Shown here one piece after another: positions 1,860 through 19,838 of a stretch of DNA of 64,000 nt (position 1 is the stretch's first letter; each line of letters starts with the position of its first letter). The DNA comes from an uncultured Gammaproteobacteria bacterium (GTDB lineage Bacteria > Patescibacteriota > Patescibacteriia > 2-12-FULL-60-25), in contig CAZURG010000002.1 in assembly GCA_964623645.1 (NCBI GenBank), forward strand, positions 8,041 to 72,040, read 5' to 3'. The position numbers were made by a program, and so were the translations under genes. The notes beneath the pieces are model-generated. The model saw nothing but the letters and a program-made list of their open reading frames with translations, was not told the DNA's origin and did not search any database.

Positions 1860-1887
1860 GACACCTCAGGGGTGTCCTTTTGTATTT
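1860..1887 (+). terminator. Rho-independent-like hairpin at the end of the 1633-1926 spacer
   Basis: gacacc-tcagg-ggtgtc followed by cttttgtattt on the + strand. No + strand CDS lies upstream, so it may close a leader or small RNA (see findings). Confidence 0.4.
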
Positions 1888-1926
1888 AGGCTTTCCTGAG
1901 TTTTACTCATTTGTCAGTAACTCTCT

Positions 1927-2511: not shown

Positions 2512-2532
2512 CTATTCGTCTTTTTTCCTACT

Positions 2533-3995: not shown

Positions 3996-3996
3996 A

Positions 3997-4773
3997 TTAA
4001 ATCTTCACGGCGCTGATCCCCGTGAGTGTTTCGTAGCGTGTGATGATGGTGCGGCAATACTCAGGATCGAGTTCGATCGTGTACGCGCGACGTTTCGTCT
4101 GCTCACACCCAATCAAAGTAGATCCCGATCCCCCAAAGGGATCGTAGACCACGTCACCAATCTTCGAGCTGTTTAGGAGAAGCATCCGCAAAAGGCCGAT
4201 CGGCTTCATCGTGGGATGGAGTTTGCTCTTGTGTGGTTTGGGGTAGATGAGGACACTTTTGTCCTTAGAGCGTTGGAAAAGATGTGTCCCGTGCCAGCCA
4301 TAGGTGACAAGTTCGTGTTGGGGAAGATAATCCATCCGACCGATGATCGAATGGGTCTTCACCCAGATGAGAAGCTGCGTGAACTTGAAGCCCGCTTCGA
4401 GCAGCCCTTCCCGTAAGCTAAAAATCATCTTGTCCGAGTTGAAGATGTAGTAGGCGTTCTTCTTCGTGAGATGTTCCTTTACGGCCAAGAGCCAGTCCCG
4501 AGTGAAAGCGCTGTATTCTGCATCACTCTGGGCATGGTCATTCAGAATCGTCTTCGGTTTCGAAAGATGGTCGGCGATGCCCATCTTCGAGCTGACGTAA
4601 TCGATGCCATATGGGGGATCGGTCAGAATGAGGCTTGGCTGTGCACCCGCAAGGAGCGTACGTACCAGCGTCCGGTCTTTAGCGTCCCCGCAAGCTAATC
4701 GATGTTCGCCGAGCTTGAAGATGTCTCCAGGATTAACCGAGAAGGATGGCTTTGGTTCCGGTGAGTTTTTCAT
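3997..4773 (-). CDS. DNA methyltransferase, N6-adenine/N4-cytosine (N6_N4_Mtase family)
   Basis: 258 aa. Catalytic motif ILTDPPYGIDY and AdoMet motif DPFGGSGSTLIGCEQ. The N-terminal LGEHRLACGDA is typical of phage/plasmid ParB-associated methylases. Confidence 0.85.
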   Translation of the reverse strand: MKNSPEPKPSFSVNPGDIFKLGEHRLACGDAKDRTLVRTLLAGAQPSLILTDPPYGIDYVSSKMGIADHLSKPKTILNDHAQSDAEYSAFTRDWLLAVKEHLTKKNAYYIFNSDKMIFSLREGLLEAGFKFTQLLIWVKTHSIIGRMDYLPQHELVTYGWHGTHLFQRSKDKSVLIYPKPHKSKLHPTMKPIGLLRMLLLNSSKIGDVVYDPFGGSGSTLIGCEQTKRRAYTIELDPEYCRTIITRYETLTGISAVKI

Positions 4774-6013
4774 ATCGAGAGATGATGAGGTCGCAAAAGA
4801 TCGGTTCGATTTCGACCGTGTAGCAGATACGCTTCATTTGCTCGCAGGCGATGAGTGTTGAGCCCGAACCAGCAAAGAGATCAAGGACGATGTCGCCGAC
4901 GCGTGTACACCGTTTGAGGGCCTTCTCATGTAACGTCGGACTCTTTTCTGTGGGATGGGAATAATCCTGTCCCGGAAGGCGCTTCACGAGCCAGATGTTG
5001 AAGAGTTCCTCGATGTCCTCGAGCGTACGGTTTCCGATCCCAACTTCTTTATTTAGGACTTCGTTCAGGTTCTTGATGTCCGGGGAAAGATATGGCTTCC
5101 CTCGAATCGCGTAGACGCACGGTTCGTAGGCTTTGTTGAAGGCCGTGCCAGGGGTAACGTTAAAATTGTTTTTAATCCATAGGCATGTACGTTTCTTATC
5201 CAGTCCATGCTCTTTGAAGAGACTCTGCACAATGCCGACGTAGTTCTCATCGCACCAGTAGAAGACGTGGGCGTCTGGTTCCGTGACGAGAAGGGCGTTC
5301 CGCAATGTCGCCGCAAGGAAAGAGCGGTAGTCGGATTCAGAGAGGCTGTCGTTCGTTTTACCGCCGTACTTGCCCTTGGTTGAGACTCCATCGGTATAGC
5401 TTAAGCCGATGTTGTAGGGTGCATCGCTGTAAATAATGTTCGCGAGCTTTGTTCCCATGAGCTTCTTTACGACGGGCTCATCCGTGGAGCTACCACAAAG
5501 TAACCGATGTTCACCAAGGGCGTAGAGCTCACCGGGTTTTGTTTTAGGTTCCGTAATCTTCGAGATCTCTTTCTCTACATCGAACCCGTCATCGTCCGTT
5601 TCGAGCGTATCATTCCAAATACTCCCTAAGTCATCGTTATCAAACCCGACCTCAAGAAGTAGGGAAGTGTCGAACTCTTTGAGAAGGTCGTAATTCCAGT
5701 CGCCCACGTTTTTATTCAAGCGGAGGTTGAGCTCACGCTCTTTATCTTCCGCGAGCGAGACGTACACGACCGGGACCTCGGTGAGACCAAGTTCCTTCGC
5801 GACCGTCCAGCGAAAGTGACCACCAATGATGATACCTTTGCGATCTGGATGGATGTTAACGATAAGCGGGTCGACGAAGCCGAAGCGTTCGATGCTTTCG
5901 CGTAAGTGGCTCTTCGCGGCGTCGTCCCAGGTACGGGGATTCCAGGGGCAGGGCTTCAGGCTGTTGATGGGAGCCTGGATGACCTTCAGGGAGGTGATAG
6001 GAATGTTTGTCAT
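4733..6013 (-). CDS. ParB-like nuclease domain fused to an N6/N4 DNA methyltransferase
   Basis: The track ORF is 4733-6079. I prefer the internal ATG at 6013 (MTNIPITSLKVI). ParB_N motif: IIIGGHFRWTVAKELGLTEVPVVYV. Methylase motifs: IIYSDAPYNIG and DLFAGSGSTLIACEQ. It overlaps the next methylase gene by 41 nt. Confidence 0.85.
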   Translation of the reverse strand: MTNIPITSLKVIQAPINSLKPCPWNPRTWDDAAKSHLRESIERFGFVDPLIVNIHPDRKGIIIGGHFRWTVAKELGLTEVPVVYVSLAEDKERELNLRLNKNVGDWNYDLLKEFDTSLLLEVGFDNDDLGSIWNDTLETDDDGFDVEKEISKITEPKTKPGELYALGEHRLLCGSSTDEPVVKKLMGTKLANIIYSDAPYNIGLSYTDGVSTKGKYGGKTNDSLSESDYRSFLAATLRNALLVTEPDAHVFYWCDENYVGIVQSLFKEHGLDKKRTCLWIKNNFNVTPGTAFNKAYEPCVYAIRGKPYLSPDIKNLNEVLNKEVGIGNRTLEDIEELFNIWLVKRLPGQDYSHPTEKSPTLHEKALKRCTRVGDIVLDLFAGSGSTLIACEQMKRICYTVEIEPIFCDLIISRYEKLTGTKAILLG

Positions 6014-6053
6014 ACGGAATGAAGAAGAATAAAAATGGAGCGGAAACAAAAAC

Positions 6054-6121
6054 GTGCCCACTCCGTAGAGAGGGCACAAAAATCAAAAAAAGACTTTATG
6101 AATTCTCTACGGAGTGGGCAC
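6054..6121. repeat. 17-bp perfect inverted repeat (gtgcccactccgtagag / ctctacggagtgggcac) with a 34-nt spacer, nested with a shorter hairpin
   Basis: The arms are at 6054-6070 and 6105-6121. An inner gtgccc/gggcac hairpin is at 6054-6077. On the minus strand the structure is followed by gtttttgtttcc. It therefore probably terminates the 6236-6709 gene and/or acts as an operator upstream of the methylase operon. Confidence 0.6.
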
Positions 6122-6235
6122 GACCGAGGCAAAGCCTCTTCGACGCGTTAGACGCGTCTCCTATCGATCAAAAGATCGAAATGAGTGATACACCACTGAT
6201 GGTATATGACGTGAAATGAACTTGTTATGAGTATA

Positions 6236-6709
6236 TCATTTTCGCTTTTTCTTTTGCAAGGCGTCGTATTGCTCGTTCCAGTCATTTCCAAAGAATATCG
6301 GTACCCCTCCTTTTGGTACACAGAGACGTACAGCTTTTCCCTGCGATCTCGCTTTTTCCATGATCTCTTTGATCGGTCCGAGGGGTAGTTCTATGGTTGA
6401 TTGCCCAGTAAGATCCATGTCGCTGAGCACATTGCCGTCCGCGTAAGCTTGAAGAGATTTCCCATTTCGCATCGACTTTTCTACGCCTCGAGCAAACGTG
6501 GTATCCCCTCGCATTTTGGTTGCGTGTAACACAGCGTACCTAAGTGTAATAGCGACCTCTTTATCGGTTTCAGAGATATAAAATTGATCAGTCGATCCAC
6601 TTTTATTAGGAATTTCGGCAATTTCATCTGTCATTGGTCCGTTTGTGGCTACGAACTCGATGGATTCGGCGATGAGGGGAGATTTTTGGCTTTTGGATTG
6701 ATTGCGCAT
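6236..6709 (-). CDS. Hypothetical protein (157 aa), downstream partner of the HEPN-like gene
   Basis: The ORF starts 46 nt downstream of the 6756-7625 stop on the same strand. I recognise no motif. Confidence 0.55.
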   Translation of the reverse strand: MRNQSKSQKSPLIAESIEFVATNGPMTDEIAEIPNKSGSTDQFYISETDKEVAITLRYAVLHATKMRGDTTFARGVEKSMRNGKSLQAYADGNVLSDMDLTGQSTIELPLGPIKEIMEKARSQGKAVRLCVPKGGVPIFFGNDWNEQYDALQKKKRK

Positions 6710-6755
6710 ATTTAAACCCTATAACAAGGGTGTTTATTTGAGTAGAGAGGTATTT

Positions 6756-7625
6756 CTAGATATGCACGTCGCTATTCTTCACGATAATCGCGCCATTATC
6801 GTGGACTATATTTTTGACGCAAGTAATTCTTTCTCCAAACTCATCCGAGTTACTTTTTTGGTTCTCTGCATGATCATTATTCCATCGTGTGATCATAATT
6901 CTCACTGCGCCATTAATTATTTCAAGCAGATCTTCCGGAGAAATAAAGATCCCTTGAAAATTCGTTTTTCTTTCGAGTTCGCGAGATTTTTCATTGAGCA
7001 AATCATCAGCGACGCAGACTTTATTCTGCACTGAAAAGAAGTGAGTTAGACAATTGCGCAGCTCCCTTAAGTCTTTTGTTGTTAAATGTCTCAAACGGTC
7101 GGGGTTTTTTTGACCCCACTTGTTGCTTTCGTGTAGGCAGAATCTATTCAAAAATGAATCAATCTCCTTTTTATTCATTGCAAATCCAATGATTTTTTCT
7201 TTGTCATATGTTTGTTTCTCGTAAGCCAGATTTAAACAGAATAGTGTATCTAAGTATGCAAATAATGCGACCACCTTAGATCGTGTAAATGGTTTTATCG
7301 TGGTATTTTCAAGAAAAGCAATGGGATTTTGAGATAGGGTGTGCTCGAAAGTGAGAGACTGTTCTTTCAGGACACTGAATGATTTCTCGATCAGCTTAAA
7401 TAGTTCTTTAAAATATGATCTGATATTCAACATCTTTCTATCGATCTCTAACATGCTCTTCACCTCTTTCTCTATTTCTTGCAAGAAAGAAATGATAGGG
7501 AGTAGATCGGGGGATATAACGACCTTATCTCCATCAAAGACAAAAAAAGTTGCTTCATTGAATACTGGAGCTTGTTCGGTATCGAGGTGTCCGGAAGATT
7601 GCTTTTTTGATGTTTGAGGAGCCAT
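6756..7625 (-). CDS. HEPN-like (Abi-type) protein with an RNxxxH motif
   Basis: 289 aa. DLRELRNCLTHFFS gives R-x4-H (codons at 7041-7058) in a helical C-terminal half. This resembles the Abi_2/HEPN families. Confidence 0.5.
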   Translation of the reverse strand: MAPQTSKKQSSGHLDTEQAPVFNEATFFVFDGDKVVISPDLLPIISFLQEIEKEVKSMLEIDRKMLNIRSYFKELFKLIEKSFSVLKEQSLTFEHTLSQNPIAFLENTTIKPFTRSKVVALFAYLDTLFCLNLAYEKQTYDKEKIIGFAMNKKEIDSFLNRFCLHESNKWGQKNPDRLRHLTTKDLRELRNCLTHFFSVQNKVCVADDLLNEKSRELERKTNFQGIFISPEDLLEIINGAVRIMITRWNNDHAENQKSNSDEFGERITCVKNIVHDNGAIIVKNSDVHI

Positions 7626-7725
7626 ATGAGTTGATAATAGGTAGAAATCGCCAAGTTATCAAACGATCCTTCTCTTCTACCTTTTCTAAACCGATGAGAT
7701 GCTAATATAGAATAAACTTTAACCT

Positions 7726-9252
7726 ATGCCCAAAAAATCCACGAAGAAACCACGAGTAACTAGAACCTACGGGCCGATCCATTTTGAGGATCTCGACCCA
7801 CATCGTTTTGAAGACCTAGTTCGCGAGTTAATCTATGATTATAAGGATTGGCAATCTATCGAAGCTACAGGAAGAGGTGGAAACGATGATGGTTTTGACA
7901 TTCGCGCTTATGAGAAGCAAAAGGTAGACCAGTCACAGCGGGAAGAGGATGGTGAGCAAAATGAACTGCACCCTATGCTCGGAAACCAGTGGATGATTCA
8001 AGGAAAAAGAGAGAAGGTGATTGGACCAAAACGCGTCGAGGAAATCATCGCTGATGTAGATGCTGAGAATCCTCCATACGGTTATATACTGGCGGCGTCA
8101 GCAAATTTTTCCAAAGATTCTTATGACACCTTTCGAGAAGAGTTGCGCAAGAAAGGAGTGATGGAGTTTCACTTATGGGGTAGGGCTGAATTGGAAGATA
8201 TGCTCCATTTTCCAAAGAATGATCATATACTTTTCACGTTTTTTGGCATTTCATTAGTCAGTAGAAAGCGATCTAGAACAACTGAGATACGGCGAGTGGT
8301 GATTCAGAAGAATAAGCTGTACAAACTGTTGGGAGAGGGACGTGGCGAGTTTCATCAATCTGTTCTTCTCAGAGATTCAAACGATGTTAACTATCCGTAT
8401 GAAGACGAGTATGGCGACTTTGATACCTTCCCTCGTTGGCGTGAATATAAGGCAATTAAGAATCATACTGATGGTGTTATTTTCGCTATACGCAAGCATT
8501 ACGCCTATATAGATAAAGAAAAGAAGGAGTATGACTACACTGAGGTGGTAAACCTGATTTACAGGGAAAGCGATTCGCAGGATAAAAAACAAAAGCAACA
8601 GGAGGATCGCAGAAAAGTGGAAAGCTTCTGGGAGTATTTACCCCGCCACAGTCAAGCAACTTTTATTAGGAATGGTTTAGTTCAATATGACGAAATCCTA
8701 GTTATTGATGAGAAAGGGGATAATGCATATGAATTCCCACATCTATTTGTTGACTTTAATGGTAGGAATTACCCATTCGCTGGAAGCTACGAATACTTAG
8801 ATGTGCAAGAGGATCAGATTTCTCTTAAAGATTATAAGCGTATAAAAAAGTTCCCCGATTCTTTTTTAGAACCTAGTATAGGAACGATACACGAAGACAA
8901 AAATATTACTTTAAGTAACCAACATTTCAGCATGTTAAAGAACGATAATGAAGAGTTTTTCGCACTTTATGATTTGGACGGTAGGTATAGCTTCCTTCAG
9001 TCCACGGATTTGTTAAAAATTGAAAACCAGGATCAAGGAAGTAGCTCTAATTACTATCTCCGAATTACTCATGTAGAGAGAGTGAATTTAGGAAAGTATC
9101 TTGAAAAGTACCCAAATCTAGAGTGGGCAATCGAGCGTCAGATAGAGGGAGGTCTCGATCTCGAAAAAACTTTAAACATCTGTGAGTTTAAAAAAACCTA
9201 TAGCTTCGTTGTAGAGCAAGAGAAGAGTAAGCGGGATAAGAAGAAATCGTGA
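7726..9252 (+). CDS. Protein with an N-terminal Mrr-like (restriction endonuclease, PD-(D/E)xK) domain and a ~340-aa unknown C-terminal region
   Basis: 508 aa. FEDLVRELIYDY...ATGRGGNDDGFDIRAY...WMIQGKRE matches the Mrr_cat pattern FE-x-L...G-x-DGG-x-D-I...Q-x-K. The C-terminal part is unrecognised. Confidence 0.65.
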   Translation: MPKKSTKKPRVTRTYGPIHFEDLDPHRFEDLVRELIYDYKDWQSIEATGRGGNDDGFDIRAYEKQKVDQSQREEDGEQNELHPMLGNQWMIQGKREKVIGPKRVEEIIADVDAENPPYGYILAASANFSKDSYDTFREELRKKGVMEFHLWGRAELEDMLHFPKNDHILFTFFGISLVSRKRSRTTEIRRVVIQKNKLYKLLGEGRGEFHQSVLLRDSNDVNYPYEDEYGDFDTFPRWREYKAIKNHTDGVIFAIRKHYAYIDKEKKEYDYTEVVNLIYRESDSQDKKQKQQEDRRKVESFWEYLPRHSQATFIRNGLVQYDEILVIDEKGDNAYEFPHLFVDFNGRNYPFAGSYEYLDVQEDQISLKDYKRIKKFPDSFLEPSIGTIHEDKNITLSNQHFSMLKNDNEEFFALYDLDGRYSFLQSTDLLKIENQDQGSSSNYYLRITHVERVNLGKYLEKYPNLEWAIERQIEGGLDLEKTLNICEFKKTYSFVVEQEKSKRDKKKS

Positions 9253-9255
9253 ATT

Positions 9256-9813
9256 TCAAATCCTTAAGATTTTCGCCTCATTCCACGCCGTCCAAGGAGT
9301 CTCGCGATAGCGAGCCAGGTTCTCTTCCGATGGATTCAAGATAAAGCCAATCCCATCTCGATGCTCGCGTTGAACAAGGAAAGTCATGCCAGTCGTCCCT
9401 TCAACAACCATCCATCTTAGGACTGAGTTCTTTGGGGACTTCTCTCGCGTATACCCAATGAGCTTGGCGAGTTCATCGAAGTTATCGTGCTGTTGCCACC
9501 AGTCTCGTGAATACCCTTTGCTTACCCCTGCGTGAGAGGGGATGGATTCGTGTTCCTTCGGGTCTTCTTTGTGGTTTAGATATGCGAGAATGTCTGTTCG
9601 ACGGAAAAGAAGCTTTCCAGCTACGCGGTAAACGTTCACGGCATGTCGATCGATCATACGTCTCACAACCTTTTCCTCCACTTCCAGCGTTTGAGCTAGT
9701 TCTGGAGTATCGAGGAATTCGACATCCTCTTGTAAGAGGAGTGAGTCAGGTTTCTTAAATACGGCTGGATCGATGCCAAATGCGTCAGGAGTGTTGGGTT
9801 TGAATAGCGGCAT
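9256..9813 (-). CDS. Excisionase/MerR-type HTH (HTH_17-like) protein with an unknown C-terminal domain
   Basis: 185 aa. LDTPELAQTLEVEEKVVRRMIDRHAVNVYRVAGKLLFRRTDILAYL is an HTH_17-like segment. Its start lies 1 nt after the stop of the upstream 87-aa gene. Confidence 0.55.
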   Translation of the reverse strand: MPLFKPNTPDAFGIDPAVFKKPDSLLLQEDVEFLDTPELAQTLEVEEKVVRRMIDRHAVNVYRVAGKLLFRRTDILAYLNHKEDPKEHESIPSHAGVSKGYSRDWWQQHDNFDELAKLIGYTREKSPKNSVLRWMVVEGTTGMTFLVQREHRDGIGFILNPSEENLARYRETPWTAWNEAKILRI

Positions 9814-9814
9814 A

Positions 9815-10078
9815 TTATTGATTCCAGCGAGGAGTCATTCCACGTTCAACTAAGGCAATGACTTCATCGTACTTAAAAAGACGTTTTCGGAGCACTCGAT
9901 AACAAGCGATCTGTCCAGAATCGGCAAGGCGATAAACGCTGGCGGTGGAGATTCTTAAAAGTTTACCGACTTCCTTAACCGTCATGAGGCGAAGATCGGG
10001 CTTTGGGGTGTTTGATGGCGTTGGATTCTTCGTTGATCCACTACCATTGGATCTTGTGTTTGTAGAACGAAAGGCCAT
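9815..10078 (-). CDS. Excisionase-family DNA-binding protein (HTH_17)
   Basis: 87 aa. LMTVKEVGKLLRISTASVYRLADSGQIACYRVLRKRLFKYDEVIALVE is a classic AlpA/Xis-type HTH. Confidence 0.7.
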   Translation of the reverse strand: MAFRSTNTRSNGSGSTKNPTPSNTPKPDLRLMTVKEVGKLLRISTASVYRLADSGQIACYRVLRKRLFKYDEVIALVERGMTPRWNQ

Positions 10079-10144
10079 AGGACGTTCTGTAAGGGGAGTT
10101 AGAAGAGTTCAATTACTAGTCTATACCTAAGTCTTAAAACGCCA

Positions 10145-10166
10145 AACGCCGCACGGATGCGGCGTT
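10145..10166 (-). terminator. GC-rich 9-bp hairpin with a tetraloop (aacgccgca-cgga-tgcggcgtt)
   Basis: Perfect stem. On the minus strand it is followed by tggcgttttaag. It sits in a short GC-rich patch (10141-10205) inside an AT-rich spacer. Confidence 0.35.
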
Positions 10167-10476
10167 CAGGCGACTCCTTTACCCAGCCTCATCGGCGACG
10201 CACCTTCACATATTAATGAGAATTAATAAGCAAGATCGCAAAAAGGAGTATTTAAAATTTTACAGCTTATTCCAGTGAACGCAAGACGTTCCACGTTTTC
10301 TTTAGAATGAATTCGGCTCAGTTATGGTAAGTCACGGTCACTGATCCTAACGATCATTTTTTTGTAATGTATCAGCTTGCTTTTTAGAAGCTCTTAGAGT
10401 CATATAGTGCTGATATAGTCTTAAATACGCTTTGAAAAAGCCGCCATTCGCTGAATCTAAAACGTCATGTTTCTCT

Positions 10477-12258
10477 ATGCCTAAAGATAAACAAAAGAAG
10501 AGTAATATCGCGATTTGGCGAATCGACACGAACCTTGAGGTTTGTTTGAATAAGAGCACTGATGAAATCATTCAAATGATCCAGCGGGTTTATACGAAAC
10601 GAGACTTGACCCCGCTGCCGTTCAATGGGACCTCCTATGAAGGGAAGAACGTGAAGGGTTTTCAAGCTGCTAGGTATTCAGATGGTCTTCAAGTCTTTTT
10701 AGCGCCCTTGTTACGCTCTGGCTTGTCTGATGAAGATAAGAATAGACTTTTTTCAAGTGTTAACAAAGACATCGTGCTGTTTATTTACGATGAAAGCGAC
10801 ATTTTTGCTGTGACGAGTGGAACGGGATATTCAATCATTCAGAACTACTTAGACGAACGCTTCCCATTCGAGATTGCAAAAAGGATGTTGAAGGGCGACT
10901 TTAAGAGTGCAGAGATGCGCGGTCTTACTGGCTTGGTATATGCGCAATCAAGGAACTTTCGACGAGATTACAATTTTTCTCGTAAGGAAGCCTTCGGTAA
11001 GGTATGGAAAAAGCTAACAGGAAGTATCGATCCGGCTGTACTAGAGGGTAGTGCATTCATTCGTGATTTTTTATCCGACGACAGTGGAAAAAAGATTAAT
11101 GCAGACGTAAAGTCGTCTTTCACTTTTCGTAAGACAATCAATCTTAAACAGGTTTTTTCCGCTGTGAAAGAGCTGCAGAGCCTACTTTCTAAAGATCTGA
11201 CGACGGATCAGGCTAATGCTTTTATCTTTCTAGATACCCTCAAAGAGGTCACTAAGCAGGAAACGAAGGAAGTCTTGAAAGAGGCGCTAGTTACGGAGCT
11301 GTATAGCTTTGTGAGTTCTTCCGATAGCCAAGAGTGCGATTATGACTTCTGCCATCCAAAAGAGATGACCAAATTCCTCTACGGAACAGACTATAAAATA
11401 TCCCGAGATCTTACGTGGGAGGATGCGCCATCTTCAGCAGAAGTTCTGATGAAGATTCGTAATTCAGATAAGATAGATAAAAGCAGTCTAGAGAACTTCA
11501 AGGAAGCATTCTTTGGTTTGTCCATGAGCTTTCTGGAGGAGGATGAAGGATTGATGCATAGTGACGATCTTTGGAAATACTTTCATGGTGAAGTTGAGCA
11601 AGGGGATAAGAAGTATTTCCTAATCGACGGAAAGTTCTACGAGGTGATTGGTGAGTTCTTAAAGACCCTCGGAACGGATTTTGAGGACTGCGTCTTCGGA
11701 GATGACTCTATTTTGACTAGCGCCATTCCACTGAACAAATGGGATCCTGCGGAAGATGAGTCGGACTATAATGAAAGGCAAGGGAAGGTAGATCTTTTCT
11801 ACTTTGGCGACAAGGTGTTCTTAAAGAAAGGGACAAAAGGGAAGATCGAGCTTTTTGATCTTCTGTACGTGCAAGATGGAAAGGCCTACATCATCCAGGT
11901 AAAAGACGGTTTCGGGGCTTCTATTCGAGATGCTTGCTCACAGATTCAAATGGCAGCCGAGATTATCGAGCACGATCTTCAAGTCGTGAATAACCCAGAG
12001 TTGAGTCGATACTTTGTAGAGTTTAGTAAGCTAAACCATGGTCTAGATCGGAAGCAATTTTTAGAGCTTCTTAGGTTAGAGCGCCACTACGTGCTTGCAT
12101 CTGCTACAAGACAGGAATTTACTAAAGAAGCCTTTAAGAAAGGGATGTTTAAGTCTGAAATAGCAAAATTCGAAGTTTTAGGAGTGGCTCATGAATTCAA
12201 AGCTAATGACTACAAGTTCCATCTTGCCCGTATTGAGCGCGTTAGTGGTCGAGTATAG
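10477..12258 (+). CDS. DUF6119/TIGR04141-like 'sporadically distributed' protein with a C-terminal PD-(D/E)xK-like motif
   Basis: The track ORF starts at TTG 10432. The first ATG is at 10477 (MPKDKQKKSNIAIWRI). IVLFIYDESDIFAVTSGTGYSIIQNYLDERFPFEIAKRML...RGLTGLVYAQSRNFRRDYNFS follows the family pattern as I remember it. ELFDLLYVQDGKAYIIQVKDG (11857-11904) gives D...Q-x-K. Confidence 0.55.
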   Translation: MPKDKQKKSNIAIWRIDTNLEVCLNKSTDEIIQMIQRVYTKRDLTPLPFNGTSYEGKNVKGFQAARYSDGLQVFLAPLLRSGLSDEDKNRLFSSVNKDIVLFIYDESDIFAVTSGTGYSIIQNYLDERFPFEIAKRMLKGDFKSAEMRGLTGLVYAQSRNFRRDYNFSRKEAFGKVWKKLTGSIDPAVLEGSAFIRDFLSDDSGKKINADVKSSFTFRKTINLKQVFSAVKELQSLLSKDLTTDQANAFIFLDTLKEVTKQETKEVLKEALVTELYSFVSSSDSQECDYDFCHPKEMTKFLYGTDYKISRDLTWEDAPSSAEVLMKIRNSDKIDKSSLENFKEAFFGLSMSFLEEDEGLMHSDDLWKYFHGEVEQGDKKYFLIDGKFYEVIGEFLKTLGTDFEDCVFGDDSILTSAIPLNKWDPAEDESDYNERQGKVDLFYFGDKVFLKKGTKGKIELFDLLYVQDGKAYIIQVKDGFGASIRDACSQIQMAAEIIEHDLQVVNNPELSRYFVEFSKLNHGLDRKQFLELLRLERHYVLASATRQEFTKEAFKKGMFKSEIAKFEVLGVAHEFKANDYKFHLARIERVSGRV

Positions 12259-12309
12259 ACTTCCGCTAATATTTAGTAAGAGTAAGATTGATTAAATTGT
12301 GAAAATGCT

Positions 12310-12819
12310 ATGGAACAAGCAGAGTTATTGGGTAAAGTAAAATCAGCTGTAAAAAAGTTGATCGTAGATGATGCTCACTTACTGACATATAGCGTTTCCG
12401 AGAGGAGTATTTGTCACCAATTAGCGATATATCTCGCCGCGGAGTTTGCGGGGTATTCGGTTGATTGTGAATACAATCGGCACGAAGATGTTTCAAAAAG
12501 ATTAAGCTTCAAATTAGACGATTCGCAGACACCTCGTGATCCAGATGACCATGGAGTTTGTGTTTCACCAGACATAATTATTCATGAAAGAGGTACTGAC
12601 GCGCGTAACCTGCTCGTCATTGAGCTAAAGAAAGATAGTAACCCTTTAAGGAAGGGCGACTACGATCTTAAGAAAATCCGAGCGTATGTAGATGAGATAG
12701 GTTATGATTTTGGTCTGTTTATCGAGCTTGGCACTGGTGAGAATATAGGTATGAAAGATGCTGAGTTAGCGACTAAAGAATCCGATAAGCTGGTTAACGT
12801 ACTCTCGATCTTGTCATAG
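12310..12819 (+). CDS. Small PD-(D/E)xK nuclease-fold protein
   Basis: 169 aa. It starts 51 nt after the DUF6119-like gene with no hairpin between them. Motifs: SERSICHQLAIYL...DCEYNR...SPDIIIHERGTDARNLLVIELKK (D...E-x-K). Confidence 0.55.
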   Translation: MEQAELLGKVKSAVKKLIVDDAHLLTYSVSERSICHQLAIYLAAEFAGYSVDCEYNRHEDVSKRLSFKLDDSQTPRDPDDHGVCVSPDIIIHERGTDARNLLVIELKKDSNPLRKGDYDLKKIRAYVDEIGYDFGLFIELGTGENIGMKDAELATKESDKLVNVLSILS

Positions 12820-12831
12820 CTCATAAGTTGT

Positions 12832-13350
12832 TTAGTTTGCGACTTGTCCGATTCCGGGATTTTCTGATTTAAGAAACACATATTCATACGGCTTTCCTTC
12901 CTTATTCAGAATAATACGCGCTTTAAGCTCACCTTTTCGTACCATTTTCCTCACGGTAGCCGAATGTAGTTTGAACTTGCTCTCAAGTTCCCACATGAGC
13001 CATCTGCTATCGCGATCCGTGAAGACTTCGGGGGGAACGATCCCTTCATCTAGCGCCCTTTGACAATCTAGACATTTTTGCCCGTATTTATCGTACCAGC
13101 TCGAGTCTCCACTGATGGTCACGTGACAAAGAATGCAGCTATACGTCCCATCTGTTAGATGGAATCCATTCGGGTGCTCTTTAAGCATCTCTTCACGCCT
13201 GGTCTCTCTTTGAGAGATTTTAAGCAGAAGTCCGAAGAATCCAATAAGGGGGATGGCCTCTGCTTTGGCTCTATCGTCGCTGATTTCCTCTCCAAACGAC
13301 TCTTTCCAGACTTCCTTGAACTCATCGATTGCTTTTTGGGGTAATTGCAT
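12832..13350 (-). CDS. Zinc-ribbon plus HTH_17-like DNA-binding protein
   Basis: 172 aa. CILCH...CLDCQ (CxxC...CxxC), then WLMWELESKFKLHSATVRKMVRKGELKARIIL (HTH). It is convergent with the 12310-12819 gene and divergent from the nucleotidyltransferase cassette. Confidence 0.55.
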   Translation of the reverse strand: MQLPQKAIDEFKEVWKESFGEEISDDRAKAEAIPLIGFFGLLLKISQRETRREEMLKEHPNGFHLTDGTYSCILCHVTISGDSSWYDKYGQKCLDCQRALDEGIVPPEVFTDRDSRWLMWELESKFKLHSATVRKMVRKGELKARIILNKEGKPYEYVFLKSENPGIGQVAN

Positions 13351-13429
13351 ATAATGCTAGATTATTTCTCTAATTGCCCTGGTTACAACCCCTCCAAACA
13401 CCCCGGCAAAACTCTTTGGAATCGTGTAC

Positions 13430-13530
13430 GATTTGTCCGATTTCCAGCATGACCCACATGCCTCAAAACCCCTCCCGAAAGTCCCTCAAGCTCCTTGCAA
13501 AGCCGAGTTCTGTACCCGCCCGTCGAGCCA
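13430..13530 (+). repeat. Direct repeat copy 1 (~100 nt) upstream of the nucleotidyltransferase gene
   Basis: It starts with gatttgtccgatttc and ends with cgtcgagcca. It aligns along its length with 14443-14540, roughly two-thirds to three-quarters identical by eye. Shared blocks: gatttgtccgatttc, acccacat, aaag-ccct, gtcgagcca. Confidence 0.7.
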
Positions 13531-13535
13531 TGAGC

Positions 13536-13597
13536 GACAGTGTCTGGCGACCCAGACACTGTCAGTCAAAAAAGCACCACAAACGTGGTGCTTTTTT
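13536..13597 (+). terminator. Tandem hairpins, the second a bidirectional rho-independent terminator
   Basis: gacagtgtctgg-cgac-ccagacactgtc (12-bp stem, 13536-13563), then aaaaaa-gcaccac-aaac-gtggtgc-tttttt (13568-13597). Confidence 0.65.
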
Positions 13598-13641
13598 GTT
13601 GTTTGGCATTGGGCTGGTCAAGAGCTATATTATCGGTTGAT

Positions 13642-14427
13642 ATGTCTCAAATTGATCTACGATCGGTCCTTGATCATCTCTCGCATTCACCAAAAGTAAA
13701 AGCCATTTTCACAACAGGCACAACCGCTTCTGGATTAGGGCCATCGAGCGATATCGATCTTGTAGTTATCTTAGAAAAAAATGATGCAGGTATAAAGTCA
13801 GCCTACGCAATGATCGAAAACCGTTTCGCTGACATCTTTTTCTTTGATTTGGATTTTGTGAAAAAGGTGGCGCAGTTAGAGAAAATCTCTGCTAATGGTT
13901 TTGAAGGCATATTTATAACATGGCTAGCGAAAGGAAGGATCGAAAAAGATGAAAACGGACTTTTGTCAGAACTAAAAGCGAAATCAGAATCCAAGTCGCA
14001 CGCGCTTAGTATCTCTTTGGAAGAAAAACAAGATAATTGGTTCAAAATAAATTATAACTTCATCGCCAATCAGCGGTATTTTCATTCTAAGGATAACTTG
14101 TATCACACCGCTTTGGAAATCAGGCTTCTTTATAGTGTCAGTGAATTGATTGTGGCGTATTTTTCTCTGCGAGGTATTCCATGGAGAGGGGAAAAAGAAG
14201 CTGTAAAGTATCTCGAATCGAATGATGCGGAAGCGCTCAAGGTTTTCATTGATTATACAAAGAGTCAATCGCTTGCAGATAGATTCCGTTCATACCAAGC
14301 GCTCTTCAAGGTGGTATTGTATGGTGATTTTCAAGTATGGGATAAAGATTTCATGGTCGTGAAAGATGTGAAGAATCAAATCAATGAGACATCGGCTAGC
14401 TATATACAAGAGCTGATTGGGAAATAG
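13642..14427 (+). CDS. Pol-beta-superfamily nucleotidyltransferase with a helical C-terminal domain (KNTase/ANT-like architecture)
   Basis: The track ORF is 13540-14427. The upstream part runs through the terminators, so I use the ATG at 13642 (MSQIDLRSV). TTGTTASGLGPSSDIDLVVIL is the G-S...D-x-D NTase signature. Confidence 0.7.
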   Translation: MSQIDLRSVLDHLSHSPKVKAIFTTGTTASGLGPSSDIDLVVILEKNDAGIKSAYAMIENRFADIFFFDLDFVKKVAQLEKISANGFEGIFITWLAKGRIEKDENGLLSELKAKSESKSHALSISLEEKQDNWFKINYNFIANQRYFHSKDNLYHTALEIRLLYSVSELIVAYFSLRGIPWRGEKEAVKYLESNDAEALKVFIDYTKSQSLADRFRSYQALFKVVLYGDFQVWDKDFMVVKDVKNQINETSASYIQELIGK

Positions 14428-14442
14428 GGTTAAGCGGTATGT

Positions 14443-14540
14443 GATTTGTCCGATTTCTCACATAACCCACATCCGTTAAAAAACTTCTTTAAAGCCCTAA
14501 GAAGCCCTTAATAAACGAGCTCTTATCAGCCGTCGAGCCA
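14443..14540 (+). repeat. Direct repeat copy 2, immediately downstream of the nucleotidyltransferase stop
   Basis: See copy 1. It begins 16 nt after the TAG at 14425-14427 and runs straight into the terminator at 14541. Confidence 0.7.
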
Positions 14541-14598
14541 AAAAATCTCCGCTAGAAATAGCGGAGATTTTTTAATGCCCTAAATGGGTTTCGGAATG
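14541..14598 (+). terminator. Bidirectional terminator plus conserved 3' motif (copy A of a second repeat family)
   Basis: aaaaatctccgc-tagaaata-gcggagatttttt, then aatgccctaaatgggtttcggaatg. Compare 16688-16747. Confidence 0.6.
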
Positions 14599-14840
14599 AT
14601 ATAATGGTTTACAATATATTTTATGGGCATGATCTCTATTCTAGCAGAGGAGATGCTAGTCTAGGGCCTAAAAATCTTCCTCTAATTCTTCGAGTGGGGT
14701 TTTAGTGGCAAATCAGAAAGTTTTCGTAGTTCACATGCCAGCTTTTTATCCTCGGCAAGGGAGTTCTGAAGTAGGGAATTTAACAACTCGCAACACCATT
14801 TCTTTTACGCTCTCCGAAATGTAACCTTGGGTTTAGTGGT

Positions 14841-15258
14841 ATGAAATTTGAACAAGCGCAACCCCAAGAAACAAAAAGAGATCTTACGGCTTTGCTGCGC
14901 TCCGCTGATGAGGAGCGGCGAATCCGCAAAGAAATAAAGACATGGCCCGTTTACACGCTCGAAGCCCGTGATGGCGAAAGGGGTATTTTTATTCACGGAG
15001 ACAGGCACGCATACGATCTTGCTAGCGTACAACAGATGAAGGCGGAATTTGAGCAAAGACGTCCGGACATTGTTTTGGTTGAGCATACGTACCCATGGAA
15101 AGACATTTTCAAAGATCAAGATCCTATTTGGCGGTGTTAGCGCGTCTCCAAACGTGTGTGTTCAAGACGCAAAGCTCTGTCCCGATGGCTCGGCGGTCGG
15201 CCGTACGGGTCCCAACTGTGAATTTGGGGCATGCCCTTCGCGAGCGTTGGTCCAATAA
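14841..15258 (+). pseudogene. Two abutting out-of-frame ORF fragments, likely decayed genes
   Basis: The 99-aa ORF (14841-15140) contains IFIHGDRHAYDLASVQQMKAEFEQRRPDIVLVEH, which resembles only the N-terminal motif of TraB/GumN-type proteins, and it stops early. In another frame (15157-15258), CVQDAKLCPDGSAVGRTGPNCEFGACPS looks like a Cys-rich module normally preceded by a signal anchor, but here it lacks one. Confidence 0.35.
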
Positions 15259-15289
15259 CGCCAGTTTTTCATGCCAGAGCGGCAACGGC

Positions 15290-15598
15290 CTATTCGCCGC
15301 GCTTCCGAGGCGGTCCCCATTGCCAGCGAGGCTTCTCCCCGGTTCTGTAGCAGATGCGGATGAGGGCGATGGTCAAAAGTGAGACGGGCAAGAGAAAGGT
15401 GAATACGATCTCCCGTGGAGAGGATGTTTCGTCAATCGTTAAGCCGAACCCCGTCACGGCAACGATATAGACGAGGATGACGAGCCAGCCTTGCCATCTG
15501 GCGGGTGTCCAGCCCCAACCATACAGTTTCGCCTTAAACCAATAGTTGTTTGGGTTGTCTTTTAGGGAGGCGAGGTATTCTTTCAGCATATAAAGCAA
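15290..15598 (-). CDS. Small integral membrane protein
   Basis: 102 aa. It contains YGWGWTPARWQGWLVILVYIVAVTGF plus a second hydrophobic helix. Confidence 0.55.
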   Translation of the reverse strand: MLYMLKEYLASLKDNPNNYWFKAKLYGWGWTPARWQGWLVILVYIVAVTGFGLTIDETSSPREIVFTFLLPVSLLTIALIRICYRTGEKPRWQWGPPRKRGE

Positions 15599-15659
15599 GG
15601 ATAGGGGAGCGTGCGCAAAGGCGATAGCGTCAGAACGGGTTTCGCGTTAACATGAGGGC

Positions 15660-16142
15660 ATGAAAACATCCCTGGCTGATGTGGGCAAGCTGGCCCTTTG
15701 CGTCTTAACCTGTGAGCTCGCGGGCATCATCGGCTCATTTTTTTCGATTTCGGCCATTCCTGCGTGGTATTCCGGACTTGTGAAGCCCGCGCTGAATCCT
15801 CCGAGTTGGGTATTTGGTCCGGTTTGGACGATATTGTACGCCCTCATGGGAATTGCGGTCTTCCTCGTTTTGCGGCGAGGGTGGCGGCAGAAGGGGGTGA
15901 AGGTGGCGCTTGGCATTTTTGCTGCGCAGTTGCTAGCGAACGCCCTCTGGTCGATTCTTTTCTTTGGGATGCGGAATCCGCTGTACGCGCTGATCGATAT
16001 CCTTGTGCTTTGGGTCCTTGTTCTTGTAACGATCTTGGTATTTTATCGCCTCTCAAGGCCGGCGGCATACCTGTTATTGCCGTATATCGCTTGGGTAAGC
16101 TTTGCGACGTACTTGAATTACATGATCTATATCCTTAACTAA
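15660..16142 (+). CDS. tspO: TspO/MBR family tryptophan-rich sensory protein
   Basis: 160 aa with five hydrophobic helices. Family hallmarks: WYSGLVKPALNPPSWVFGPVWTILYALMG and ANALWSILFFG. Confidence 0.9.
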   Translation: MKTSLADVGKLALCVLTCELAGIIGSFFSISAIPAWYSGLVKPALNPPSWVFGPVWTILYALMGIAVFLVLRRGWRQKGVKVALGIFAAQLLANALWSILFFGMRNPLYALIDILVLWVLVLVTILVFYRLSRPAAYLLLPYIAWVSFATYLNYMIYILN

Positions 16143-16210
16143 TTGGGCAGTATCTATTAAAGGCGGATGCTTTTTGCTATCGTGACGTTAGAATAATCAA
16201 TAATACAAAT

Positions 16211-16660
16211 ATGGAACATATACACTACGCGATCCAGATCAACGCTCCTCAAAGAACGGTTTGGGACACGATGCTCGGCGAAGAAACGTACAAACAATGG
16301 GCATCCGTTTTCAATTCGGACGCTTCCGTGGAATCCTTCGTTGAAGGCGGCTGGGAAGAAGGGGACGACATTCGTTTTTTAGGTAAGGAAAAAGATGGCA
16401 CCGTTTCAGGCATGATCGGGAAAATACAAGTATCCAAGCCGGGTGAATTTATTTCTATCAAGTACTCGGGTGAAATCATGCAGGGCAAGGAAAGTACGTA
16501 TGGACCGGATGAGTTGTATTTCGAGAACTACACCTTCAAGGAAAAAGACGGCGGAACGGAATTGACGGTAGACATTGACGTTAAGGATGAATACAGGGAC
16601 ATGTTTAACGGCATGTGGCCAAAGGCCTTGGAAGCGTTAAAGCGGCTGGCGGAGAGATAA
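16211..16660 (+). CDS. SRPBCC-superfamily protein (AHSA1/START-like)
   Basis: 149 aa. IQINAPQRTVWDTMLGEETYKQWASVF and the size fit Aha1-like SRPBCC domains. Confidence 0.7.
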   Translation: MEHIHYAIQINAPQRTVWDTMLGEETYKQWASVFNSDASVESFVEGGWEEGDDIRFLGKEKDGTVSGMIGKIQVSKPGEFISIKYSGEIMQGKESTYGPDELYFENYTFKEKDGGTELTVDIDVKDEYRDMFNGMWPKALEALKRLAER

Positions 16661-16687
16661 AGGAGGTCCTGTCGCAAGAGGCGAAAG

Positions 16688-16747
16688 AAAAATCTCCGTC
16701 ATCTTTGCTTGACGGAGATTTTTCATCCCCCAAATGGGATTGGAACG
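16688..16747 (+). terminator. Terminator plus conserved 3' motif (copy B of the 14541-14598 repeat)
   Basis: aaaaatctccgtc-atctttgctt-gacggagattttt, then catcccccaaatgggattggaacg. It shares the stem sequence and the a-t-N-ccc-N-aaatggg-N-tt-N-ggaa-N-g tail with copy A. Confidence 0.6.
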
Positions 16748-16792
16748 GTTTTTCCGCATCCAAGCAGCCGTAGAAAAACCCAAGGCTTTCGC

Positions 16793-17755
16793 CTAAAGGA
16801 TGTCCCCATTCATCACCAGCCAGGCATCCTTCTCGCAGACGTCCCGACGGATGGCCGCCACATCATGCGTTTTCACCGTAAGGTAGGTGTTCTGTCTCGA
16901 CTTCGGCCTACGCAGATACCGTCTTCCCAAAAGCGTTCGCCAAAACGTGTTGTCCAGGACATGGAAGATCATGACTCGTGCGCCTCGCTCTGCGGCCAGG
17001 TTCTCGATCGCCGTGACGATCGTGCCCCATTCCTCCCGCTTGGCATTGGTGATGAGATCGTGTACGTAACAACGGTAGCCTGAAAATACGAGCACGGCAT
17101 ACCCACTCAGGCCCTCTTTTGCGAAGGAGTATGACTCATAAGCGGCACCCGGCTTATGAAGGTAGCGCCAAGTCAAATACGCGGCATCTTTTTCCACGTG
17201 TAAAAAGACGTCCGCCATTCCTTGGCGGGGCACGTCTAAAAAAGCGTCGGCACGCTTCAGGGGGAGTCCCGAGTGGGCGCTGCGTCGGCACCATCCATAG
17301 TATCGTGCGAAGCGTCCAACGATACGGTAGCCATAGGCGGAAGCGTGCTTGTCGACGTTTACCCCCGCATCGTTGGAAAAGCCGATACTGAGGGCTTTTC
17401 CCTGGAGCCGCACCTGTTCATAGACACGTTCCGCTAACAAAGAGATCAATCCGCGCCGACGATGGTGGCGGTGGGTGGCCATATCGATGCAGACGCTCGC
17501 CGACAGGCGTGTTTCCCCCTGTCGTATCTTGGTGGGGATGTTCGTGTATTGCGCGACCACCTGGTCCGCCTCATTGAGCGCGAGATACGTCACGCCTTGC
17601 CCTTCGAACGAGGGGGAAAAGAATTTCCAGCGGATGAGGGCTTCTTTCTGCGTGGTGCGGAGAACGAAGGCATCATCGAGGAGCTGGATGAGCTGCGGCA
17701 GGTACCGCGGCGTATAGGGGATGGTCTTATACGGCATAGGGGTTCGCGTCCTCAC
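16793..17755 (-). CDS. GNAT-family N-acetyltransferase
   Basis: 320 aa. DMATHRHHRRRGLISLLAERV fits the acetyl-CoA-binding motif A (R-x-x-G-x-G/A-like). The start may instead be the ATG at 17737. Confidence 0.6.
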   Translation of the reverse strand: MRTRTPMPYKTIPYTPRYLPQLIQLLDDAFVLRTTQKEALIRWKFFSPSFEGQGVTYLALNEADQVVAQYTNIPTKIRQGETRLSASVCIDMATHRHHRRRGLISLLAERVYEQVRLQGKALSIGFSNDAGVNVDKHASAYGYRIVGRFARYYGWCRRSAHSGLPLKRADAFLDVPRQGMADVFLHVEKDAAYLTWRYLHKPGAAYESYSFAKEGLSGYAVLVFSGYRCYVHDLITNAKREEWGTIVTAIENLAAERGARVMIFHVLDNTFWRTLLGRRYLRRPKSRQNTYLTVKTHDVAAIRRDVCEKDAWLVMNGDIL

Positions 17756-18845
17756 CGAGAGAAGGGGCGGGCTGGAAGCTCATTTGGTCCGCCGCCGAAA
17801 AAGAGATGCTGCTTCCGGGGACGACACAGGTCCCGACGTGCGGAATCGCGTATGCGACCAGCCTGCCGGTCCCATAATGGCGTTCCTCGGCGTAGACGTC
17901 GGCCATGCTGTTCACGCGGGAGCAGGGGATGCCTAGCCGTGAAAGGGCCTCCACCAACGCACTTGTCTTCTGTGCGGAAAAGACCTCTTCAAGAAGTGAT
18001 GTGAGCTCTTGGCTGTGTTTCAGGCGGGATTGGTTAGTGCGGAACCGTTCGGCGCTGAAGGTCCGGTGTTTGGCCAGGAAGCTTGCCAGGGTTTCCCAGA
18101 GCGGATCATTCCCGACCGCGATGGCGATGGCGCCGTCTTGGGTCTTGTACGTGCCAAACGGAGCGATCTGGTTGTCCTGGTGGCCCGTTCGGACGGGGTT
18201 TTGCTTATGCAGCGAATAGTCCACGAGATTGCTCTCTAGGAGGTTCATTGCGCAACCAAGCATGGAAACGTCAATGAACTGGCCTTTCCCTGTTCGTTCG
18301 CGATAAAATAAGGCGCTTGAAATCGCGAAGGCCAGCGTCATGCCCGAAAACGCATCCACGACCGGTGGCCCGATCTTGAGCGGTTCATCCGCGAAGCCGT
18401 TCAACGACATCAGTCCGGATTCCGCTTGCGCGATCACGTCATAATACTTGCGCGGATCCGCTTGGCCGTGGCCGGAGAGCGAGGCGTAGATCAGCCGTGG
18501 GTTTCGCGTTCGGACGGTTTCGAAATCAATTTTCAACGCATGCTTCGTCCGTGGGGCCATGTTCTCGACGACGATATCCGCTTGTTCGCATAGCCCATAA
18601 AATGCTTCCAGGTCGGAAGGGTCGGAGAGATCCAGGAGAAGGCCTTTTTTGTTCCGGTTCAGGACCTCGTAGTAGCCGCTCCATCCATGGGAGAGCGGTG
18701 GAAAGTGCCTTGCGTCATCAAAATGCGTCCGGCTCTCGATCTTTAGGACTTCTGCCCCGTAATCGGCGAACATCCTGGTCGCCAGCGGCCCGCTGAGGAC
18801 TTTCGTGAGGTCCAGGATGCGAATCCCGTCAAAAAGAGAAGGCAT
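17727..18845 (-). CDS. CoA-transferase family III (CaiB/BaiF-type)
   Basis: 372 aa. The N-terminus GIRILDLTKVLSGPLATRMFADYGAEVLKIE is the family signature. Confidence 0.9.
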   Translation of the reverse strand: MPSLFDGIRILDLTKVLSGPLATRMFADYGAEVLKIESRTHFDDARHFPPLSHGWSGYYEVLNRNKKGLLLDLSDPSDLEAFYGLCEQADIVVENMAPRTKHALKIDFETVRTRNPRLIYASLSGHGQADPRKYYDVIAQAESGLMSLNGFADEPLKIGPPVVDAFSGMTLAFAISSALFYRERTGKGQFIDVSMLGCAMNLLESNLVDYSLHKQNPVRTGHQDNQIAPFGTYKTQDGAIAIAVGNDPLWETLASFLAKHRTFSAERFRTNQSRLKHSQELTSLLEEVFSAQKTSALVEALSRLGIPCSRVNSMADVYAEERHYGTGRLVAYAIPHVGTCVVPGSSISFSAADQMSFQPAPSLGEDANPYAV

Positions 18846-18933
18846 ACGAAAAATGATGGCCTTATCCTACGCTTGGAGAGGTTCGCTGTATACATTCGAA
18901 CTGATATACTGCGGACAGATCAAGCATCTTCCT

Positions 18934-19329: not shown

Positions 19330-19433
19330 CTCGCGACGGATCGATGGCGGTGGGGATTCGCGTGACGTTTACCGCACGCCTTCCGCGTGTGATCATGGAC
19401 GAAGAGCGCCCTTAACGCCTTTATCCCACCCAT

Positions 19434-19829: not shown

Positions 19830-19838
19830 GCGACTCTT

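Follow-up and report, generated by a model that had tools for sequence, protein, structure and literature searches.

A DUF6119/TIGR04141 family protein and a PD-λ-3A-type nuclease encoded side by side in a low-GC defence island

The stretch of DNA analysed here, referred to below as the window, comprises 64,000 nucleotides (nt) of contig CAZURG010000002.1 (GenBank assembly GCA_964623645.1, positions 8,041 to 72,040, forward strand) from an uncultured bacterium placed in the Patescibacteriota by GTDB. Between positions 9256 and 12819 of the window lie four open reading frames (ORFs), namely a gene of the DUF6119/TIGR04141 family and a small gene for a PD-(D/E)xK-type nuclease, both on the plus strand, and two genes for helix-turn-helix proteins of the HTH_17 family on the minus strand. 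The original prediction, made from the sequence alone, had viewed this group as a candidate undescribed system built around the two plus-strand genes. Its coordinates for all four ORFs were borne out, as was the arrangement of the two HTH_17 genes, which are 1 nt apart and divergent from the DUF6119 gene across 398 bp. The features concerned, with protein lengths in amino acids (aa), are:

10477-12258, plus strand: DUF6119/TIGR04141 gene, 593 aa (ORF map, Pfam, NCBIfam)
11758-11904, plus strand: putative nuclease core of the DUF6119 protein, with E428 (in a helix), D445, E458, D461 (at the start of a β-strand) and Q474-x-K476 (in the next β-strand)
12259-12309: AT-rich spacer of 51 nt between the DUF6119 and small nuclease genes
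12310-12819, plus strand: small PD-(D/E)xK nuclease gene, homologue of PD-λ-3 subunit A, 169 aa (PADLOC)
9815-10078, minus strand: small DNA-binding protein of the HTH_17/excisionase family, 87 aa
9256-9813, minus strand: HTH_17 protein with an uncharacterised C-terminal half, 185 aa
10079-10476: divergent intergenic region, 398 bp

The 593-aa protein scored 83.3 bits against the Pfam model DUF6119 (PF19614; E 2e-23, cutoff 27) and 67.8 bits against the NCBIfam model TIGR04141 (E 6.3e-19, cutoff 35), and with both curated cutoffs exceeded this check by hidden Markov model (HMM) upheld the predicted family assignment. An alternative upstream start, TTG at 10432, would extend the protein to 608 aa; ATG at 10477, which gives 593 aa, was chosen because the N-termini of homologues and a 593-aa database entry (P0121) agree with it. 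The 62 homologues collected are about 590 aa long and share 30-62% identity, and the window protein aligns end to end with 31 homologues (profile coverage 2-584). An exhaustive profile search with a threshold of E ≤1e-3 returned 1446 representatives at 50% identity (435 under the stricter threshold of E ≤1e-30), nearly all of them about 590 aa in length with an end-to-end profile match; the architecture is uniform, and its predicted layout is an N-terminal α/β region of ~420 aa followed by a C-terminal PD-(D/E)xK-like domain. The window protein is a full-length member of this family which carries all of the invariant residues, and nothing sets it apart. No DUF6119 member was found among PLSDB plasmids, in GenBank phages or in IMG/VR, and a PADLOC scan at E ≤10 gave no match. 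A literature search on DUF6119, TIGR04141 and PF19614 found no paper on function, and to this extent the claim that the two plus-strand genes have no assigned function held.

The D...QxK motif that had been noted at 11857-11904 was likewise found, these positions encoding D461-LLYVQDGKAYII-Q474-V-K476. Both D461 and K476 are invariant in 32 aligned homologues of 30-62% identity, together with E428, D445, E458, R484, D485 and Q489. In the AlphaFold2 (AF2) model of the protein, which has a predicted local distance difference test (pLDDT) score of 86.7 and a predicted template modelling (pTM) score of 0.77, the C-terminus passes from a helix (428-436) through β-strands, among them 462-466, with D461 just before it, and 469-477, which holds Q474xK476, to a helix at 483-502, and this order of secondary-structure elements is that of the canonical PD-(D/E)xK core. 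The match to the Pfam model RE_EcoO109I was weak and below cutoff, and the best Foldseek matches in the PDB, although non-significant (E 0.06-0.5), were to PD-(D/E)xK domains, namely those of the R2 restriction-like endonuclease, CdiA-CT, R.BspD6I and Can2. Comparison with the small-nuclease family by hhalign was also non-significant and paired the QVK strand with the ExK strand. Taken as modelled, the C-terminus of DUF6119 is likely to be a nuclease of the PD-(D/E)xK type with a QxK variant of the motif.

The remainder of the protein (residues ~1-420, window 10477-11740) was the region of interest in a comparison of the AF2 model with BFVD, where phage proteins annotated as RdgC or exonuclease were matched with E values of 1.5e-4 to 1e-3 and a probability of ~1 over alignments of 320-420 columns, with TM-scores of only 0.2-0.4. 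No signal was obtained by hhalign against E. coli-type RdgC, for which the alignment was of low diversity and held close relatives only; RdgC gave no Pfam match (PF04381) in DUF6119, and solved RdgC structures were not in the top 50 PDB fold matches. The possible resemblance of the N-terminal body to RdgC is thus taken as a lead only. In its predicted layout, the family resembles single-protein PD-(D/E)xK defence nucleases and type II/IV restriction endonucleases (REases), for example Shedu/DUF4263 and Mrr-type enzymes, in which a large region for sensing or recognition is likewise joined to a C-terminal PD-(D/E)xK-like core and which are solitary in defence islands. In contrast to these enzymes, however, DUF6119 has a QxK rather than a (D/E)xK core and no consistently associated methyltransferase (MTase); no match to any of them was obtained by sequence, and none of significance by structure.

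The second plus-strand gene was found as predicted, 51 nt downstream of the first with no terminator between them, and its 169-aa product has a D...ExK core. The protein matched the PADLOC model PD-Lambda-3_A (E 1.8e-30, 104 bits), and its alignment with the E. coli PD-λ-3A orthologue covers 147 aa at 39% identity (E 2e-29); neither Pfam nor NCBIfam gave a match. A look-up of its exact sequence (P0001) returned no recorded contig that encodes it. Residues E31, D52/E54 (in VDCEYNR), P87-D88 and E105-x-K107 are invariant in 35 aligned homologues, and the AF2 model (pLDDT 89.3) places P87-D88 and E105-x-K107 on strands 89-92 and 100-108. The top fold matches in the PDB (E 2e-3 to 1e-1) were all to PD-(D/E)xK proteins, namely Eco15I-N, CinB, Cas4 SSO0001, MunI, Hjc and SwaI. 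As modelled, the protein has the core of the PD-(D/E)xK superfamily, an αβββαβ arrangement with D...(D/E)xK on consecutive strands. Members of its family were found on 48 plasmids, most of which are conjugative, and on a small number of viral contigs.

Judged by its sequence, the 169-aa gene is therefore a member of the PD-λ-3A family, a subunit already known but here in new surroundings, and for this half of the pair the absence of an assigned function did not hold, as the family belongs to a validated abortive infection (Abi) system. PD-λ-3 was found in a functional selection in E. coli ECOR28 (Vassallo et al. 2022, PMC9519451) and has been described as an abortive-infection system and used as an Abi control (Saxton et al. 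2026, PMC13190303). The supplementary tables on PD-λ-3 give three proteins over 2759 bp, of which A is a small PD-(D/E)xK protein, B combines AbiJ_NTD3 with a Hypoth_Ymh HEPN domain and C is a β-propeller fusion. A matching three-gene arrangement of 2759 bp was located on the E. coli IncHI1B plasmid NZ_ON934556, where it encodes proteins of 159 aa, 267 aa (TIGR02391/Hypoth_Ymh) and 477 aa (Mrr_cat plus propeller). The window protein shares the size of subunit A and its E...VDCEYNR...PD...ExK core; however, while the A gene leads the three-gene operon in PD-λ-3, the window gene trails DUF6119, and counterparts of B and C were not detected in the window by PADLOC, BLASTP or phmmer. For subunit B, the neighbouring ORFs gave no PADLOC or Pfam match and phmmer with the E. 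coli protein found nothing in the window. The Mrr_cat protein encoded 3 kb away (7726-9252) has no PADLOC match and no BLASTP similarity to PD-λ-3C beyond the shared Pfam domain. As B and C are absent, the locus does not qualify as a PD-λ-3 system; most metagenomic PD-λ-3A-like genes likewise lack both.

Conserved linkage of the two nuclease genes was assessed with HMMs built from both family alignments and run on the six-frame ORFs of sets of loci. These comprised 22 DUF6119 loci from species-representative genomes of CPR (candidate phyla radiation)/Patescibacteria, Actinomycetota and Bacteroidota, taken with ±8 kb, four extra metagenomic DUF6119 relatives (L104 and L109-L111) and 80 metagenomic loci of the small nuclease, 56 of which had at least 600 bp upstream, enough to expose the C-terminus of a DUF6119 gene placed as in the window. 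The small nuclease was found in none of the 22 genomic DUF6119 loci, and DUF6119 in none of the 80 small-nuclease loci, a count that has limited power for distant neighbours. Both genes were present in one of the four extra loci (L111), and hence in one of 26 independent DUF6119 loci overall. The only close copy of the pair, in L103, belongs to the same island, with 89-92% identity across three genes, and so was not counted as independent. The two genes are thus almost always unlinked elsewhere (1/26 and 0/80 loci), which essentially refutes the dedicated DUF6119-small nuclease pair of the original prediction; the conserved co-occurrence expected of a dedicated two-gene system was not observed.

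The one independent locus with both families (L111:6001-8926, JGI Ga0620614_000016) encodes DUF6119, a multi-pass membrane protein of 204 aa and a small nuclease of 164 aa. Its DUF6119 is 54% identical to that of the window. Its small nuclease is 34% identical to the window protein and is last by rank among 202 family members relative to it, and the window nuclease ranks 130th when seen from the L111 nuclease, which thus belongs to a distant sub-clade. This low identity and these distant ranks argue against co-inheritance of the two nucleases with DUF6119. Upstream of the nearest relatives of the L111 nuclease there is a Lamassu-like CTD7-MC3-LmuB_C operon, an MTase of 824 aa or else unknown genes, and none of these relatives is near DUF6119.

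The minus-strand genes were also compared with DUF6119 loci elsewhere. The 87-aa protein matched HTH_17 in Pfam (E 1e-10) and the excisionase model TIGR01764 (37.2 bits, cutoff 28.8), and the 185-aa protein matched HTH_17 in Pfam (E 7.8e-7, 29.7 bits, cutoff 27). This domain is common to MADS Mad1 and to excisionase/AlpA/MerR-like proteins, but neither window protein passed the Mad1 model NF047737 (28.3 and 19.1 bits, cutoff 80 bits), and in contrast to those contexts the window genes have no adjacent integrase or MADS genes. Among 42 immediate neighbours of DUF6119 at other loci there was no HTH_17 protein. A dedicated phmmer search within ±8 kb of DUF6119 gave scattered, weak HTH_17-like ORFs, 1.4-4.4 kb away and in four loci only, and the 185-aa protein had no homologue in any DUF6119 locus. 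As HTH_17 proteins are not recurrent neighbours of DUF6119, the view that the pair are dedicated regulators or antitoxin-like partners was abandoned.

The intergenic DNA was searched for signals. No terminator-like or promoter-like site was found in the 51-nt spacer (12259-12309); since a σ70-like promoter on the plus strand was not found anywhere in 9000-13600, the promoter search is uninformative on operon structure. An Rfam scan and a repeat search of the intergenic regions gave nothing meaningful, and the divergent region 10079-10476 has no Rfam match and short imperfect repeats only. At ~10148-10163, within this region, there is a GC-rich hairpin, GCCGCACGGATGCGGC, which is terminator-like, with a T-run on its minus-strand side, and has no obvious minus-strand gene upstream of it.

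The setting among nucleases that had been noted was confirmed, as the genes lie in a low-GC island with two DNA methyltransferases and an Mrr_cat nuclease. From position 1 to ~15000 the window has a GC content of 35-53%, in blocks of differing composition, and the remainder has 58-70%; this blockwise low GC of the first ~15 kb points to a mosaic, acquired island. One of the two methyltransferases is fused to ParB_N, and the island also holds a DUF5655 protein and a nucleotidyltransferase. The features flanking the four genes are:

3441-6079, minus strand: mobile-element backbone module of an HTH_Tnp_1_2-like protein (184 aa), an N6_N4 MTase (258 aa) and a ParB_N-MTase (448 aa) (Pfam)
7726-9252, plus strand: protein of 508 aa with an Mrr_cat restriction-endonuclease domain (Pfam Mrr_cat, E 7.5e-7), convergent with the HTH_17 genes
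12832-13350, minus strand: 172-aa protein with a CxxC...CxxC zinc-ribbon-like motif, convergent with the small nuclease gene

Homologues of the backbone module (HTH_Tnp_1_2-like plus ParB_N/N6_N4 MTase) were found at four other DUF6119 loci. They lie directly beside DUF6119 in L109 (3676-5446), L111 (3458-5108) and L005 (1-1002) and 7 kb upstream of it in L009 (3-1161), compared with 4.4 kb upstream in the window, and the ParB-MTase of the window is 46% identical to that of L111. Serine recombinases and GIY-YIG/T5orf172 genes are additionally present in L109 and L111; these recombinase and GIY-YIG genes were not found in window 1-20000, and Actinomycetota DUF6119 loci lack the backbone module. 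From one element to the next, different cargo genes stand between the MTase and DUF6119 and again downstream of DUF6119. These observations suggest that a single family of integrative elements, variable in defence cargo, carries the closest DUF6119 genes, and such variation on a common backbone would explain how related elements can keep DUF6119 and yet differ in whether a small nuclease follows it. A role of DUF6119 as the cognate endonuclease of the ParB-MTase was considered and rejected, as most DUF6119 loci have no adjacent orphan MTase and the MTases that are present belong to complete restriction-modification (RM) systems or to the element backbone.

Neighbouring genes at the other loci were annotated with Pfam and PADLOC, and clustering of them by BLAST gave no recurrent partner for either family. 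The immediate neighbours of DUF6119 include type I HsdR (twice), PDC-M33A/B/C, PDC-S13, PDC-S05, a type II REase (REase_II), PD-T4-3, PD-Lambda-5_B, DUF4145, a resolvase and an integrase, to which the extra loci (L104, L109-L111) add BsuBI/PstI RM, Shedu, GIY-YIG proteins and serine recombinases. In three loci (L001:1942-5438, L002:344-3840 and L009:4381-7909) the PADLOC candidate system PDC-M33A/B/C, of which C is DUF6339, lies directly upstream of DUF6119 on the same strand at a distance of 56-77 nt, and the CPR loci linked to PDC-M33 in this way include a DUF6119 protein only 37% identical to that of the window.

The small nuclease keeps equally varied company, its neighbours being mad2 (three times), mad5, type I RM subunits, PbeA, DrmD (DISARM-like), ResIII/DEAD helicases, AAA_21 and HNH proteins. 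Genes found 1-9 nt upstream of it encode an SMC/AAA_21 ATPase, HsdR, a DUF1156 methylase, an 1853-aa protein, an MTase and a Kelch propeller, and one homologue follows a Lamassu-like CTD7-MC3-LmuB_C operon at 72 nt (L112:984-5007 and L113:397-4420). The small nuclease thus joins defence operons of many kinds promiscuously, as an add-on at their ends, and its place behind DUF6119 in the window fits that habit.

An undescribed system acting as a unit is not supported by these data, which leave a subunit of a known system in different company and an uncharacterised family of likely nucleases associated with defence islands. The explanation that we favour, and hold to be probable with a good deal of room for doubt, is that two independent nuclease genes lie side by side in a mosaic acquired defence and mobile island and do not form a dedicated two-gene system. 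The gene identities, the conserved motifs, the predicted folds and the absent conserved linkage were observed, and from here on the account is conditional. DUF6119 would be a self-contained, single-polypeptide enzyme, in which the N-terminal α/β body of ~420 aa would recognise a substrate or trigger, possibly by binding DNA in view of its weak structural resemblance to phage RdgC-like proteins, and a C-terminal centre of the PD-(D/E)xK type (E428, D445, E458, D461, Q474xK476) would cleave DNA. Most likely it would act alone as a host nuclease against mobile elements, a role suggested by its occurrence alone in variable, RM- and defence-rich neighbourhoods and by its absence from phages and plasmids. 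The 169-aa protein would be an orphan, minimal nuclease of the PD-λ-3A type placed behind DUF6119, which, as no terminator was found, may be read through from the DUF6119 gene; in the E. coli PD-λ-3 system, A works with the HEPN protein B and the Mrr/β-propeller protein C in abortive infection. The HTH_17 pair would be generic DNA-binding genes of the excisionase/AlpA type that belong to the mobile island. For the two nuclease genes we infer nuclease activity, a role in defence and independence of action.

Several points weigh against this explanation. The nuclease fold of DUF6119, which we regard as likely, is argued from a motif, a predicted topology and non-significant Foldseek matches (E >0.05). 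The two genes are co-oriented and 51 nt apart with no predicted terminator, from which co-transcription appears likely, and many of the metagenomic contigs are short, which limits what none of 80 loci can say about distant neighbours. The juxtaposition in L111 is a second and independent one, exceeds the naive expectation by chance and could mean a facultative functional link. In a different reading, the PD-λ-3A-like nuclease would be a portable accessory effector able to join many different defence proteins, and in this element lineage it would be co-transcribed and work together with DUF6119 as a lineage-specific two-gene system. In addition to the short spacer on a single strand, the two independent cases of a family member placed downstream of DUF6119 (window and L111), the frequent translational coupling (gaps of 1-9 nt) of the small nuclease to diverse upstream defence genes and the place of A as one subunit of a multi-gene system in PD-λ-3 are all consistent with it. 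However, 25 of the 26 DUF6119 loci are without the small nuclease, including close relatives on the same backbone (L109, L005, L001/L002 and L009), none of the 80 small-nuclease loci has DUF6119, and in L111 a further gene intervenes. We consider such a facultative module possible, if unlikely.

The mobile backbone and the Mrr_cat gene raise two further alternatives. DUF6119 might have no part in defence and be a recombination or maintenance protein of the element itself, with an RdgC-like DNA-binding body and a nuclease tail, that travels with the ParB-MTase/HTH_Tnp backbone. The Foldseek matches to phage 'RdgC' models (E 1.5e-4 to 1e-3), the backbone homologues beside DUF6119 in L109, L111 and L005 and upstream of it in L009 and the window, and the serine recombinases near DUF6119 in extra metagenomic loci would agree with such a role, but those matches reach TM-scores of only 0.2-0.4, profile-profile comparison with E. 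coli RdgC gave no signal, and the top 50 PDB matches include no solved RdgC structure. Furthermore, the backbone is missing from Actinomycetota DUF6119 loci, plasmids, phages and IMG/VR yielded no member of the family, and most of the genes directly next to DUF6119 are RM or defence genes, so that we regard this role as very unlikely. The other alternative is a dispersed and diverged PD-λ-3-like system, made up of 12310-12819 (A), 7726-9252 (an analogue of C) and 6756-7625 (an analogue of B), into which DUF6119 and the HTH genes were inserted. PD-λ-3 does consist of A, a HEPN protein B and an Mrr_cat fusion C, the Mrr_cat protein of the window is an N-terminal fusion of similar size, and ORF 6756-7625 has an RNCLTH motif; against this, neither PADLOC nor BLASTP or phmmer comparison with the E. 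coli proteins gave a match to B or C, the genes lie on different strands and are spread over 6 kb, and the HEPN assignment derives from one motif, which neither Pfam nor PDB corroborates. This last arrangement seems to us highly improbable.

A bolder, joint proposal on both families is put forward tentatively, and we consider it rather doubtful as a whole. DUF6119, with ~1400 diverged representatives that are chromosomal only, would be a hitherto unrecognised stand-alone nuclease against mobile elements, with an RdgC-like body that embraces DNA and a PD-(D/E)xK tail of the QxK variant, and at the same time the PD-λ-3A-type nuclease would be a portable accessory of many systems, attaching to Lamassu-like, type I RM, DISARM-like, MADS, PD-λ-3 and DUF6119 loci (the last in the window and L111) and modulating or backing up their action. 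PD-λ-3A itself is a validated Abi component whose mechanism is unexplored, and the small gene of the window extends this family. As most relatives of PD-λ-3A occur without B and C and end many defence operons, the question arises whether current definitions of PD-λ-3 capture its real use. DUF6119 is a sizeable and uniform family that resides in defence islands with a conserved nuclease-like core and has no model in defence databases, and it would be a sensible, if unremarkable, candidate for screens of single-gene defence.

Some further observations were made on the remaining genes of the island. A PHROGs scan gave a sole match, that of the 87-aa HTH protein to PHROG 66 (excisionase/regulator), and sequence searches of the PDB with both family profiles and three neighbouring ORFs returned nothing. 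Between the ParB-MTase and Mrr_cat genes, an ORF of 289 aa on the minus strand (6756-7625) contains 'RELRNCLTHF', which corresponds to an Rx4H HEPN-like motif, and has no match in Pfam, PADLOC, PHROG or PDB. An ORF of at least 553 aa (window 1-1659, minus strand) gave no PDB sequence match; as it runs off the start of the window in low-GC DNA, the island continues beyond the window. The 172-aa protein (12832-13350) has a weakly HTH_17-like C-terminus (Pfam E 0.0086) and a 90% identical copy in L103, and short HTH-like relatives of it lie near DUF6119 in L001, L002 and L004.

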